The notes: generated by a model not told the origin, from the sequence alone. 32,000 bases of DNA from Microcystis aeruginosa Ma_QC_C_20070703_M131 (GCA_007095475.1 SFCA01000133.1:1-32000); one strand, 5' to 3'; positions 13,774-18,366 are shown, counted from the stretch's first letter. Program-made: numbers and translations.

Positions 13774-14511
13774 ATGTTATTATCTACTCCTGAAACAATT
13801 CAGCATATTCTTTGGCAAGGGCCACTAGAATTGGACAACGAACAAATTGCGGAAGAAAAATTTAGATTTATCTCACCTCCCTCACGGCCCAGCTATGCAC
13901 CAACTGTTAGCATCGGAAAACCAGAAGTTTGGCCATTAGCTGAACTTTATTCTGGTGTAATTCCCTCTTGGTTAGAGGTAAAACAGAATGAGGCACAGTT
14001 TTTTTTAGTCCGTTTTGCCTGTTCTCTTCGTAATAGTGGAGAAGATAAATTTCAAATTACTCAAGCTAAATTTTCTGTTGATTTACTGCCCGATAATCAA
14101 CAAAACCGGGCTATTGCTTTTGATCTATATCCGTTGGAAATAAATCAGGAAATCAAGCGTAACTGTAAAGTTAGTCTGTCCCCCAATATCAAGTTTAAGG
14201 AAGCTCAGGCAAGTTTAGGAGGAACAGATTTTGCCCTAGAATACCCCGAATTACAACCAACAATTATAGCCCCAGGAGTTGGGGAATATAAGGCTGATTG
14301 GGAATATCGAAAAGCACAGGGAAAAGGAGTTCAAGGAAGTAAATTTATGCACATGATTGTCAAAGTCCCTAATAATATGCAATTGGTGAGGACTAAGTTA
14401 AATTTAACTGCCCGCTTGGAACAAAATGGTAATCCCTTAGTTAAATGGCTTTTTAAAACTGACATTCAAAAAGTGCCAAGCGATTGCTTAATAGTCAATT
14501 TAGTTAGCTAA
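13774..14511 (+). CDS. Hypothetical 245-aa protein, no recognisable family (island gene 1)
   Basis: The ORF is uninterrupted and AT-rich, with an ATG start. Alternating polar and hydrophobic stretches (QITQAKFSVDLL, AIAFDLYPLEI, KFMHMIVKV, TKLNLTARLE) suggest a beta-rich fold. It has no signal peptide, TM helix or catalytic motif. Confidence 0.6.
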   Translation: MLLSTPETIQHILWQGPLELDNEQIAEEKFRFISPPSRPSYAPTVSIGKPEVWPLAELYSGVIPSWLEVKQNEAQFFLVRFACSLRNSGEDKFQITQAKFSVDLLPDNQQNRAIAFDLYPLEINQEIKRNCKVSLSPNIKFKEAQASLGGTDFALEYPELQPTIIAPGVGEYKADWEYRKAQGKGVQGSKFMHMIVKVPNNMQLVRTKLNLTARLEQNGNPLVKWLFKTDIQKVPSDCLIVNLVS

Positions 14512-14514
14512 TAT

Positions 14515-15444
14515 TTACTCAATCCCCACATCAATAAATGCTTGAGAAATAGCATCTAATTGAACCTCTATATGAGGAGAGGGTGCTAGTAATCGCTGTG
14601 CTTGTTGTTCAAATACTCTACGACTATCGAGGAAGTTATCCAACGAGAGAATATTTTCTAGAACAGCACCGAATAGCTCAAGAGCAAATTCGCCATTAAA
14701 AAGAGGCTCTCCATCGATGAAAGTGTTATGAATTGTCATCAATCGATAAAAAGCATGACTATGAATCAAGGAAAGTTCATGATAATTCTCGGCCGTATTC
14801 CAATCAATTTGTCCATAGACAGACCCTGCATCTGTAAACCTTAAAGAAAGTAATGTATCTAATCGTCTCAGGGATCCAGTTCCTTCTTGAAAGTTTTCTC
14901 CCACATCCCACAGCCAATTATGAGGATTATTCCAATAAAAACCATAATCCCTATGATAGTTACGCACTAAAACCGCAAATATATCACAAAAAGATTCTTC
15001 AAGTGCATTTTTTTGTGGACACTTATTATTTGGCTTTTGATCACTTGAAAATTTATTAATTTGCTGAATTAAACCATGACAAAATTCATGAGCTACTACT
15101 GTGATATCGGTTCCATAGGAACGGTTTATACCATTAATTTCTCTTTGTGCAAATAAGGCTCGTTTTGTGTACCATGCGGCAGGCTGATAGTAACCATTTA
15201 TTGTGGCAACATTAATGATAGCTTTATATTGATCTAGTGGTCTGCTGAAGTTACCGTTGATAAACTGGGCAACGGTTTCGACATTATCGCGAGCTTGTTG
15301 GCAAAAATCGTGACAAGGATCATCGACTAATAGGTGGTCAGCAAGAGTGATATTAGAGGAATAATCTTTATATCTCAAATTATAAGTTTGTGGAAGCCCG
15401 CAGTTACCATTAGATGGTGCGCCATGGCATTCTGTGCAGAACAT
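14515..15444 (-). pseudogene. Thermolysin-family (M4) metallopeptidase, catalytic and C-terminal part of a split gene
   Basis: VVAHEFCHGL (HExxH) is followed by NALEESFCDIFAVLV, which matches the thermolysin GxxNEaxSDiFG third zinc ligand. Then come LWDVGEN, LIHSHAF and the terminal ISQAFIDVGI, in the same order as in thermolysin. The apparent ATG 15444 sits exactly at the insert junction. Confidence 0.8.
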
Positions 15445-15869: not shown

Positions 15870-16451
15870 GCAGAAGGTTCTCAAATTTGAGAGTTCGAGC
15901 ATTATCTCCCCTGTGTGGGCATCTATCACATAATCAGTTAATTCCAGTGATGTTCCAACAGATTTTCCGCCACTGGTTGGAGCCATAACTTTAATGTTCG
16001 TAACATAAACAAGTCTCCATTCACCTAGCTTGTGACTGGAGCCATTAGAAAAGTGTTTGAAATAATAGTAAAGCTGGGGATTAACATCACAATGCTCTAG
16101 GGCTTCTCGGGAAATAGGCTCACCCTTCTTAAGACAATATTTGCTTATCGAATATTTTATATCTTTTTCAGTAACTTTCGGATTTTTGTCAGGGTCAGGA
16201 AATCCTTTTTTTACAGCTTCATCTTGAGCAACTTCAGACGAGTTTGCAAACAAAAATTTATTGTCTTCGTCTAAATCAACAATGATCGAGGAGCCGTATA
16301 AAGGGATGTCTTGGTGTCGGAGGCGATATTTGAATTTGAATGCTTGAGTAAATTTCGATCGATTTTTGTTTGAGGGGATAGATATTTTGAAAAAGCAAGG
16401 ATATCTACCTGTCACCCAAAAAATAGTCAGTGAAGATAAAGTGATTGGCAA
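15867..16451 (-). pseudogene. Thermolysin-family (M4) metallopeptidase, N-terminal propeptide-like part (FTP/PepSY-like) of the split gene
   Basis: RLRHQDIPLYGSSIIVDLDEDNKF resembles the fungalysin/thermolysin propeptide motif. LTDYVIDAHTGEIM is the conserved DA.TG segment that precedes M4 catalytic domains. There is no ATG start, only TTG 16451 or GTG 16415. No signal-peptide-like N-terminus is visible. Confidence 0.7.
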
Positions 16452-18366
16452 TACAAGAAATAGTGCTGTTTGGTCTTATTCTCTGGTTAAGTTATGCAAA
16501 CAGGAAGATGTGGAAAAATCTCTAGAAGGTGAAATTAATTATAATCAAATTGTCGCCGATCAAGAATTAGCAACAGGAGAATTTTATGGATTCGATCTTC
16601 TAGAATCTGCCGCTAAGTCTGCCCTTCACGCTCGACTGAGAGCCATTGAAAAAATGGCAATTAATTCTCAGCAATATCTACAACAACTTTGTCAGAGAAT
16701 TGAGGAAAAATATATACTAGAAAAAGCAGAAAAATGGATAAAATTTTACCCTTTCTCTCTCAGGGCTATGCAAGATTATTTAGAAAAAAAGCTGTTTAAG
16801 GATAAATATCGCAATTGGGATGAGAGAAATTTCAAGGAAGTTAATAATAATCAAGCTTGGAGTAGGGTGGCCTATGAAGCACATTTGGCAATTATTCAAG
16901 TATATCTTCAAGAGGGTCTCTATCGTATTGCCCAAAAATATCTTGAGGTTATTAAACCCCATATCGAAAAGGGACGACTAGACGATAAACTATTAGTTAG
17001 TCTCTACCATATCTGTCTATTTGATTATCATTTTTATACAGACCTTGAAGATGAGGAACGTGACCATCAAGAAAGGGGTTTTGCAATTCGTAAAGCTGAA
17101 GAATGTTTGAACACTGCTGAAGAATATTTGCAGGAATATTTGAAAGAATACGCAATCATTGGTGAATACTCTCAAACTAATGCTCATCCTTTTTTCTATT
17201 ATCTATCTCGTATCTATTCTCACCGCGCCAAAATTTATATCTTTTTCCCTGGCTACATTGCCCAATTACCCAATCCAAAAACTCATTTATTAATTGAACC
17301 TCTTCGTCTCTTAGAAAAAGCTCGTATTTATGCGGCTAGAGACGGTGATGCTAATTACTATGCTTACTGGACAGTGTATCAAATTTGGTCTTATTTAATC
17401 ACTGCTTATGTCGGAGACACCAATCGATTAACGGAAAAATTTAGCCGCCAAAATTGTCTAGAATGGGCCGAACGTTTAATTAAAAATGCTCTTGATTGTT
17501 ATGGAGAGCGAGGCAGAAAATCTTATCAACAGATAAAAAATTATAGTGGTAAACAGACAGAGTTTGTTATATTAAATATAGTTTATGAAAAATACAATGA
17601 TATTTATGTGCAAACTATTCCCCCAATTCTTGAAATCGGAAAGGGCAGCAGCCACTTAGATGAGTTTTATCAAGGAATATTTAAATCTTCTAGTCAATCT
17701 CAAGAAAAAATTATACAGCTACCCATGTCAGCATTAACTTACCTTGACTCAAATTCAGATAATAAAGTTTATTTATTTGGTATTCACGCTAGTCTTCTTT
17801 TATTTGGGTTGGGACTGGTGGAACTTTGTAAAGATAATCAGGAAGAAGGATTAGAAGAAAGTATTCGTATGGCGATGAAAAGGTTTACTTTAGGAGCGGC
17901 AATTGCATCTGAGGGAACAGTGGATGAAAAAAGAGGAGAAAAAACCTATCTTCAGCGAATATTTACCGAGCAAAAGCCAAATAAAGATCAAAAAATGCCC
18001 GAAGATTTTCAAATTAGAGGCTTATATCCTCACCGGTTAACTCAGTTTACCGCTAAAGGGAAAATTTTTGCGGCAACCTGTCGAGTAATTCTCCTTTTGT
18101 ATAACTACGAAAAATATAGTAGCTATTGGCCAGAGGTCGCCTATCTTTTGAATGATTTACACGATGCTCAAACTATTATAAGATCGAATAATCCTGATTA
18201 TTCTTTGGGACAAAATCGCTATAGTGGTCATCTAGAACAACAATTTAAAGGGGTTAAAAGTTACTTGGAAAGTCCGAAAAATTCTGTCAAATCAGGTTCT
18301 TTAAAGGAAATTAGAAACAGAATTGTCACTGATATATTCAAAATACTTCGCGGCGACAAAGTGTAA
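16366..18366 (+). CDS. Hypothetical ~570-666 aa protein, probably alpha-helical and repeat-like, no recognisable family (island gene 3)
   Basis: It is a long uninterrupted AT-rich ORF, rich in Y/L/E/K with helix-like periodicity (AYEAHLAIIQVYLQEGLYRIAQKYLEVI, RKAEECLNTAEEYLQEYLKEY). I found no Walker, HExxH or nuclease motifs. The start is uncertain: TTG 16366, GTG 16441, or the first ATG at 16654. Confidence 0.6.
   Translation: MFEGIDILKKQGYLPVTQKIVSEDKVIGNTRNSAVWSYSLVKLCKQEDVEKSLEGEINYNQIVADQELATGEFYGFDLLESAAKSALHARLRAIEKMAINSQQYLQQLCQRIEEKYILEKAEKWIKFYPFSLRAMQDYLEKKLFKDKYRNWDERNFKEVNNNQAWSRVAYEAHLAIIQVYLQEGLYRIAQKYLEVIKPHIEKGRLDDKLLVSLYHICLFDYHFYTDLEDEERDHQERGFAIRKAEECLNTAEEYLQEYLKEYAIIGEYSQTNAHPFFYYLSRIYSHRAKIYIFFPGYIAQLPNPKTHLLIEPLRLLEKARIYAARDGDANYYAYWTVYQIWSYLITAYVGDTNRLTEKFSRQNCLEWAERLIKNALDCYGERGRKSYQQIKNYSGKQTEFVILNIVYEKYNDIYVQTIPPILEIGKGSSHLDEFYQGIFKSSSQSQEKIIQLPMSALTYLDSNSDNKVYLFGIHASLLLFGLGLVELCKDNQEEGLEESIRMAMKRFTLGAAIASEGTVDEKRGEKTYLQRIFTEQKPNKDQKMPEDFQIRGLYPHRLTQFTAKGKIFAATCRVILLLYNYEKYSSYWPEVAYLLNDLHDAQTIIRSNNPDYSLGQNRYSGHLEQQFKGVKSYLESPKNSVKSGSLKEIRNRIVTDIFKILRGDKV

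Follow-up and report, generated by a model that had tools for sequence, protein, structure and literature searches.

What are the genes that lie between dnaN and cobK in Microcystis aeruginosa Ma_QC_C_20070703_M131, and do they belong to one system? The segment in question, positions 13774-18366 of the 32,000-nucleotide (nt) stretch GCA_007095475.1 SFCA01000133.1:1-32000 (the whole of which is referred to here as the window), had been described from its letters alone as an AT-rich island of exactly three genes, centred on an interrupted thermolysin-family (M4) protease and resembling protease-triggered conflict systems such as bacterial gasdermin operons (hereafter the original prediction). 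Comparison with homologous loci identifies four ancestral genes rather than three, two of them intact and two truncated at their 5' ends. The segment is probably an accessory region between dnaN and the site of the microcystin (mcy) cluster, built of two unrelated units. One consists of the remains of a conserved cyanobacterial module in which hypX is divergent from a two-gene operon encoding a protein with an FTP (M4 propeptide) motif and then an M4 peptidase; the other is an unrelated, intact gene for a protein of 245 amino acids (aa). The features of the segment, including open reading frames (ORFs) as listed, are:

13774-14511, plus strand: intact gene for the 245-aa protein, a member of a large unannotated family and predicted to be beta-rich
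14515-15444, minus strand: intact gene for a 309-aa mature-type M4 (thermolysin-family) metallopeptidase with no signal peptide (zinc ligands H118, E119, H122 and E149; 100% identical to P0121/P0122)
15445-15866: 422-nt spacer separating the FTP-protein and M4 genes, with a 37-nt unit in two tandem copies (15625-15698)
15867-16363, minus strand: 3' remnant (~163 of 234 codons) of the gene for the M4 propeptide-like (FTP motif) protein, listed as an ORF at 15867-16451 (194 aa)
16358-16363: deletion junction with CGAT/ATCGAT microhomology, placed by blastn breakpoints and direct comparison of three sequences
16358-18366, plus strand: remaining 3' part of hypX, encoding residues ~411-1079 of a TPR-like helical protein of ~1077 aa, with the true start and 410 codons missing

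All four ORFs of the original prediction (13774-14511 on the plus strand, 14515-15444 and 15867-16451 on the minus strand, and 16366-18366 on the plus strand) exist, but the last two owe their form to a deletion. Aligned by blastn with two toxic Microcystis loci (L001 and L002), the window is collinear to 16363 and resumes at 16358 inside hypX, with a 6-nt overlap. The loss relative to L001 amounts to 1,854 base pairs (bp): 214 nt of the 234-aa gene, a 409-nt intergenic region and 1,231 nt of hypX. The junction joins codon ~72 of the FTP-protein gene head-to-head with codon ~411 of hypX; the first ~71 codons of the former with its promoter, the shared intergenic region and the first 410 codons of the latter are gone. 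Residues 1-33 of the 194-aa ORF (16364-16451) are antisense hypX, and the 666-aa ORF at 16366-18366 on the plus strand corresponds to residues 414-1079 of the full-length protein P0001 at 98% identity. When the full HypX protein was searched by tblastn, residues 1-409 had no match anywhere in the window. The divergent, overlapping 5' ends described earlier are thus an artefact of the deletion combined with mechanical ORF calling from TTG codons, and the two ORFs that had looked new are products of truncation. No database record matched the 666-aa product exactly, since gene callers choose different start codons for it. The same truncated haplotype is present in L058, in L059 and, in metagenomes, among proteins 657-679 aa long (35 of them in a single cluster), which indicates that it circulates in nature. 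The loss was probably microhomology-mediated, and it has left the module dead except for an intact but orphaned M4 ORF. A promoter/terminator scan showed no enrichment over shuffles.

The interruption that the original prediction saw in the protease is, however, not part of this damage, since the FTP protein and the M4 peptidase are separate genes in other cyanobacteria as well. In Iningainema and Calothrix NIES-2100, a 218-234-aa FTP-motif protein is encoded divergently from hypX and is followed, after 27-37 nt, by a 325-aa protein with Peptidase_M4 and M4_C domains. A further 16-174 nt separate the two ORFs in 10 Nostocales loci, apart from one overlap that is a matter of which start codon is chosen. 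Searches with tblastn located the FTP-protein gene beside hypX in 14 loci outside Microcystis (Microcystaceae, Crocosphaera, Calothrix, Nostoc, Tolypothrix, Scytonema, Hassallia and Iningainema) and found M4 in FTP-hypX loci wherever the contig reaches far enough. In two or three cyanobacterial orders the genes for the FTP protein, M4 and HypX occur as a set, and the FTP-then-M4 layout divergent from hypX is, on comparative grounds, a conserved feature of Nostocales and Chroococcales. Mature thermolysin can be aligned over residues 81-315 with the M4 protein of Calothrix (E 3e-24), Pfam FTP is matched by 12 of 14 FTP-family members (best 2.8e-10), and the profile of that family matches residues 77-157 of the thermolysin precursor, in the propeptide (E 7.7e-5). 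The loci and the alignments together place the split at the boundary between propeptide and mature enzyme and mark it as ancestral. No signal peptide was found in the intact N-termini of the FTP protein or the M4 orthologues, both of which are hydrophilic. The earlier observation that the protease has none therefore extends to intact orthologues, though it was first read from a false N-terminus, and the proposed link between a large helical protein and an M4 that has no signal peptide and is presumably cytoplasmic is supported.

The two genes might instead be pseudogene fragments of a classical secreted prepro neutral protease, split and killed by a repeat-bearing mobile element. The spacer gives this idea some substance: it is long in Microcystis (other strains have 385 nt and a single 37-nt copy, the window 422 nt through duplication of the unit), it contains the tandem repeat, and a short TTCTGC duplication flanks it. 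The same split occurs, however, with short spacers and no repeat in the 10 Nostocales loci, and the break coincides with the propeptide/mature boundary. Moreover, more than 120 Microcystis variants keep an open ORF of ~300-338 aa in which indels are in-frame, no intact N-terminus carries a signal peptide, and the 37-nt unit was found neither elsewhere in the window nor in 56 other loci. Already contradicted by these observations, such an origin is considered extremely improbable. The 37-nt unit itself (TGGTGTCGATCCCCCCTTAATCCCCCCTTGATAAGGG) is duplicated in the window and in L059; the five other Microcystis loci found to contain it have a single copy. An origin of the spacer from a miniature inverted-repeat transposable element or insertion sequence (IS) was rejected, as the unit is confined to the spacer and terminal inverted repeats are absent. 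The idea that the supposed interruption was an intron or a ribozyme was also dropped; an Rfam search of 13000-19000 gave only a chance-level U4atac match in the spacer.

The motifs from which the M4 family was first recognised (HEFCH, NALEESFCDIF and DAHTGE) are present, and H118, E119, H122 and E149 are invariant in 13 Microcystis and Nostocales M4 sequences. Of the positions equivalent to His231 and Tyr157 in thermolysin numbering, the first (H221) is kept in 12 of the 13 sequences, and the second is represented by 'DY' in Nostocales and by C or F in Microcystis. Only Peptidase_M4_C passes the Pfam threshold in the window protein (25.5 bits against a cutoff of 24.4), and the Nostocales orthologues have both Peptidase_M4 and Peptidase_M4_C; the window copy alone had no phmmer match to any M4 structure in the PDB. 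Microcystis M4 proteins form more than 120 clusters (72-100% identity, 298-338 aa) with in-frame indels between the zinc ligands. The Microcystis metagenome allele P0170 has an in-frame duplication of the active-site segment 'RNLSYGTDITVVAHEFCHGLI' (columns 160-200 of alignment A4), and other alleles carry insertions of 15-20 aa between the zinc ligands. Nonsynonymous (dN) and synonymous (dS) divergence, estimated by the Nei-Gojobori method (NG86) among 6-8 strains, was as follows:

M4 gene: dN 0.175, dS 0.24, dN/dS 0.73
FTP-protein gene: dN 0.041, dS 0.031, dN/dS 1.30
hypX, 3' part: dN 0.020, dS 0.050, dN/dS 0.40
245-aa gene: dN 0.018, dS 0.038, dN/dS 0.475
dnaN: dN 0.0032, dS 0.062, dN/dS 0.051
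hemL: dN 0.0024, dS 0.089, dN/dS 0.027

Lesions have also arisen in other strains. In M. ichthyoblabe (L010, 6464-7252) the FTP gene is missing along with the HExxH half of M4, a metagenome-assembled genome (L011, 5369-6499) has its M4 split into pieces of 195 + 84 aa, and in M. panniformis (L002, 8086-9129) an IS with a DDE_3 transposase gene is inserted between the FTP gene and hypX. The elevated dN/dS of the island (0.40-1.30, compared to 0.03-0.05 in the flanks) and these independent lesions indicate, at the sequence level, that the module is dispensable and fast-evolving in Microcystis. Together with the low G+C content (GC) of the segment, they agree with the original prediction insofar as the segment behaves as dispensable.

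For the large helical protein, a database search recovered ~80 Microcystis sequences, 1072-1085 aa long and 92-98% identical, that bear the annotation 'HypX (modular protein)'. Its relatives in other cyanobacteria are ~1050-1130 aa long (35-60% identity); the distribution is patchy, with 165 clusters in total. One genome per species was scanned for hypX, which gave 47 loci, all cyanobacterial; identity is 56-60% within Microcystaceae, 42-46% to Nostocales and Crocosphaera, and 34-42% to Leptolyngbya, Phormidesmis and Pseudanabaena lineages. The name is only a label. Pfam and NCBIfam detected none of the formyltransferase/enoyl-CoA hydratase-type domains of the true HypX, a hydrogenase maturation factor, in 17 HypX-like proteins, and the name is no evidence of a hydrogenase-maturation role; nor did these 17 members have any other Pfam or NCBIfam match, or a PDB sequence-profile match. 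The AlphaFold model (pLDDT 67.6, pTM 0.65) is mostly helical with a few beta insertions, and Foldseek found no significant structural neighbour for it, the best being generic TPR/alpha-solenoid proteins at E >=0.027. Residues ~40-66 of P0001, which are missing from the window, form a conserved segment ('KPNE..IAKQWGQ..NRIFIRRVLRSV') that resembles a helix-turn-helix, a likeness confirmed by no profile. Two complete Microcystis genomes, L010 (8001-11393, 1130 aa) and L012, encode a longer HypX with an internal insertion of ~50 aa repeating an 'IEIGKGS..LDEFYQK' motif. In Leptolyngbya-/Phormidesmis-type loci (L033, L035, L038-L040, L043, L046, L047 and L053), other conserved genes upstream of hypX replace FTP and M4, namely those for a ~330-aa coiled/transmembrane protein, a DUF4359 protein, an NfeD-like protein and a ~160-aa protein. 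Loci of the Pseudanabaena type likewise have no M4 or FTP neighbours, and the conserved genes that precede hypX in these lineages encode small membrane proteins. The ~330-aa neighbours were considered as divergent M4 proteins and rejected, as they have no HExxH motif.

The gene for the 245-aa protein begins 155 nt after dnaN and lies tail-to-tail with M4, the stop codons being 3 nt apart (14511 / 14515), as had been reported. A word-indexed search found 12 relatives of the protein, and a profile search of 1.84 billion representatives found 836 (117 at E <=1e-30), nearly all of them ~240-260 aa. Of the 20 non-Microcystis loci for which upstream sequence is available, 17 have a CHAT protease gene immediately before the gene on the same strand, and one more has a CHAT gene 1.2 kilobases (kb) upstream; some of these metagenome loci are near-duplicates, and the independent observations are correspondingly fewer. 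Pfam identified TPR or TPR-S plus CHAT domains in all seven of the upstream proteins examined. A CHAT fragment is joined or adjacent to one member of the family, and a second member matches EAD7 weakly, below threshold. No CHAT gene adjoins the 245-aa gene in Microcystis. The gene is absent from all 14 other FTP-hypX loci and accompanies the module only in Microcystis, so that the proposed trio fails the co-conservation check set by the original prediction itself, one that the FTP protein, M4 and HypX pass as a different trio. Iningainema has a 238-aa gene near M4 that was considered as a homologue and rejected as unrelated. The original prediction of a small partner for the protease is thus right insofar as the family is tightly tied to proteases, although the partner elsewhere is CHAT and not M4. 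The 245-aa gene would then be an orphan, its product an effector-like member of a family that normally appears to serve as the downstream operon partner of TPR-CHAT proteases. In one locus (L004, 3079-17458), a CHAT + 245-family pair lies beside genes for SSB, Rad52, a PD-(D/E)XK nuclease and an SNF2 helicase, a neighbourhood that suggests carriage on a phage-like or integrative element.

Sequence libraries say little about the family. Among 72 members there was no Pfam match and no PADLOC match beyond scattered, chance-level hits, the PDB sequence profile gave none, and a PADLOC search at E <=1 returned no match for the HypX remnant, for M4 in reconstructed form or for the 245-aa protein. No signal peptide is present at the start of the 245-aa protein (MLLSTPETIQH...). 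An AlphaFold model built from 12 sequences (pLDDT 66, pTM 0.71) is a beta-sandwich with a low-confidence segment at residues 119-152. All 33 Foldseek matches in the PDB at E <1e-3 are pore formers (alpha-hemolysin, leukocidin, NetB, Epx1 or CytK), with E from 4e-5 to 9.5e-4 and probability 0.94-1.0 at template-modelling (TM) scores of only 0.26-0.37; a search of a viral structure library with the same model found nothing significant. Within the profile of 72 members, one of the two strongest patterns of alternating hydrophobicity falls at residues 131-155; it overlaps the low-confidence region of the model and is compatible with an amphipathic, membrane-inserting hairpin. The hemolysin-like resemblance of this predicted structure is a lead and not a fold assignment. 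It differs from what had been anticipated, in that no gasdermin was matched and the fold matches are hemolysin-like. Literature searches on CHAT plus beta-pore-forming toxin (beta-PFT) systems and on Microcystis thermolysin returned nothing relevant.

The 98%-identity matches of the window are Microcystis sequences, which assigns both organism and locus. By its gene order, the window is the already-mapped dnaN–hypX–uma1 region in the published "hypX–uma1" arrangement of mcy-lacking strains. PMC4676040 (citing Nishizawa 2007 and Noguchi 2009) places the mcy cluster of toxic Microcystis between dnaN and uma1 and describes dnaN-uma1 or hypX-uma1 junctions in mcy-lacking strains. The island is bounded by:

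13275-13663, plus strand: 3' end of dnaN plus 45 nt, left boundary of the island
18367-18553: hypX-uma1 junction, the empty mcy-cluster site (homology to toxic L001 and L002 ends at 18366 by blastn; PMC4676040; same junction in L058-L063)
18554-19309, minus strand: cobK/CbiJ-type gene (PF02571 CbiJ), right flank of the island, equated by position with the 'uma1' of the Microcystis literature

Microcystis contigs with a full-length HypX read hemL, dnaN, 245-aa gene, M4_C gene (307-313 aa), 234-aa gene and hypX. In toxic strains, hypX is followed by a 101-104-aa C-terminal fragment of dnaN (DNA_pol3_beta_3) and then by mcyJ, mcyI, mcyH and mcyG. In mcy-lacking contigs, found via the cobK product of the window, hypX directly adjoins cobK; the module is intact in L060-L063 and truncated as in the window in L058 and L059. 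Strains carrying mcy have a second, 389-bp copy of window 13275-13663 between hypX and mcyJ (blastn, 97.7-98.5% identity; L001 13262-13650, L002 13256-13644). Direct dnaN repeats therefore bracket the island in toxic strains, though the window lacks them, and they could be a means by which the island is lost or gained. No integrase was seen at the island, only the IS inside L002. The GC of 13664-18366 is 36.4%, compared to 42.9% for the rest of the window, and this is the lowest-GC 4.7-kb stretch in the 32 kb (median 0.420). The sharp drop in composition reported earlier, for which the two hand-counted lines do give 0.33 and 0.63, is therefore real though moderate (0.364 vs 0.429), and shorter stretches elsewhere are as low.

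Several other insertions and genes were observed around the island. An IS605-type TnpB/OrfB gene is inserted between hemL and dnaN in L058 (16838-18025) and L010 (3140-4327); the corresponding gap of the window (12066-12469) has no such insertion. Downstream of cobK and cbiG, homology to L058 alone provides the annotation of a Uma2-family endonuclease gene (21042-21905), of a DUF433/DUF5615 toxin-antitoxin-like pair (~24800-25500) and of a HemolysinCabind protein gene (24101-24643) listed next to that pair.

There are several potential explanations for the combination of genes found here. Under the one preferred in this study, the FTP propeptide, separately encoded, would act in trans as a folding chaperone and inhibitor of a cytoplasmic M4 peptidase, which would be held as a latent protease until a release or targeting step that involves HypX. 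A number of points weigh against this reading. Inhibition by a trans-acting propeptide is an analogy to the cis-propeptides of thermolysin-like proteases, with no experiment or known family behind it. HypX has no recognisable domain or structural neighbour, so that its role is a guess, and since the Leptolyngbya, Phormidesmis and Pseudanabaena lineages have hypX with neither M4 nor the FTP protein, HypX must have a function independent of the protease. With neither a Tyr157 equivalent nor a phmmer match in the PDB, the Microcystis M4 may be catalytically impaired. The dN/dS values, finally, are simple NG86 counts from 6-8 sequences, without recombination correction. It is also possible that HypX, FTP and M4 have an ordinary, non-conflict role (regulated intracellular proteolysis or protein quality control), vertically inherited and dispensable in Microcystis, with the 245-aa gene as an unrelated orphan. 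HypX identities roughly track taxonomy, the module sits amid ordinary chromosomal genes in Iningainema and Calothrix, and the defence-database searches found no match, all of which would agree with such a role. However, the distribution of HypX is patchy for a housekeeping protein, dN/dS is high, M4 alleles are extremely divergent, and the module has been repeatedly lost, and on balance an ordinary role is judged unlikely.

A single protease-triggered conflict (abortive-infection) system, with HypX as sensor, M4 as trigger and the 245-aa protein as a cleaved pore-forming effector, would have M4 and HypX replacing TPR-CHAT, and a helical-repeat protein, a protease and a 245-aa protein are indeed formally parallel to TPR-CHAT plus a 245-aa protein. 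The position of the family immediately after TPR(-S)-CHAT (17 of 20 loci outside Microcystis), the CHAT-fragment fusion or adjacency and the weak EAD7 match (one member each), and the exclusively alpha-hemolysin/leukocidin fold matches with amphipathic residues 131-155 in the low-confidence part of the model would all suit such a system, as would the hypervariable M4, low GC, frequent decay and patchy HypX. Nevertheless, the 245-aa gene is missing from all 14 other FTP-hypX loci and is convergent with M4, outside its operon. PADLOC, Pfam and PDB sequence searches were empty, the fold similarity is weak (TM 0.26-0.37, model pLDDT 66), and no phage or defence-island context has been shown for the Nostocales module; a single system is accordingly held to be distinctly improbable. 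A role in defence or cell death for either unit is plausible, if rather doubtful. More speculative, and on the unlikely side, is the possibility that two undescribed systems meet at this locus: a trans-propeptide M4/HypX switch of a latent intracellular protease in cyanobacteria, and an 836-cluster family of signal-less, hemolysin-like pore-forming effectors that partner TPR-sensor-CHAT proteases in gasdermin-analogous cell death with a different pore-former fold. Within this possibility, the 245-family effector may be recruited to M4/HypX in Microcystis.

As regards the window itself, the comparison chiefly corrects the earlier picture: what looked like a conflict island with a broken protease is a known Microcystis locus in a copy damaged by deletion. 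Both this locus and the fact that it varies have been published before, and the split-propeptide M4/HypX module and the CHAT-partner family appear to be undescribed in the libraries and papers searched. A signal-less M4 with a separate propeptide, tied to an uncharacterised ~1077-aa protein, would if confirmed be a natural case of trans-propeptide control inside the cell. The 245-aa family, almost always behind TPR-CHAT and predicted to be pore-former-like, is a candidate for a non-gasdermin, protease-activated death effector. In addition, the variability of the locus bears on the origin of toxic and non-toxic Microcystis genotypes, because it abuts the mcy-cluster site.

Compared to known systems, the gene order of the window is the same as that of the mcy-flanking dnaN-hypX-uma1 locus of Microcystis, of the 'hypX-uma1' type. 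In the literature, as far as it could be read, that junction serves as a polymerase chain reaction marker with no function assigned, and no description of the 1.85-kb internal deletion or of the protease and propeptide genes was found in the papers searched.

A signal peptide and a cis FTP/PepSY propeptide are typical of MEROPS M4 proteases, though not strictly defining. The M4 peptidase described here has the same HExxH plus downstream Glu zinc site as the thermolysin-like prepro-metalloproteases (thermolysin, aureolysin and pseudolysin), and its partner protein is homologous to their FTP propeptide. It differs from them in having no signal peptide, in that the propeptide homologue is a separate upstream gene, and in the linkage of the module to a ~1077-aa helical protein; the Microcystis copies have, in addition, diverged strongly from these enzymes. 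In comparison with alpha-hemolysin/leukocidin beta-PFTs, the 245-aa protein is ~50 residues shorter, has no secretion signal, belongs to a cytoplasmic protease context and has no sequence-level match, including to Pfam Leukocidin, although its family likewise has a central amphipathic alternating segment. From the bacterial gasdermin-protease systems, the family is set apart by the absence of a gasdermin match in PADLOC, Pfam (72 members), the PDB profile and the top 50 Foldseek matches, and in the window by the fact that M4, and not a CHAT gene, adjoins the 245-aa gene. It is nonetheless like those systems in that a signal-less, beta-rich protein of ~245 aa adjoins a (TPR-)CHAT protease in most family members, an adjacency that by analogy suggests the logic of protease-activated membrane damage.

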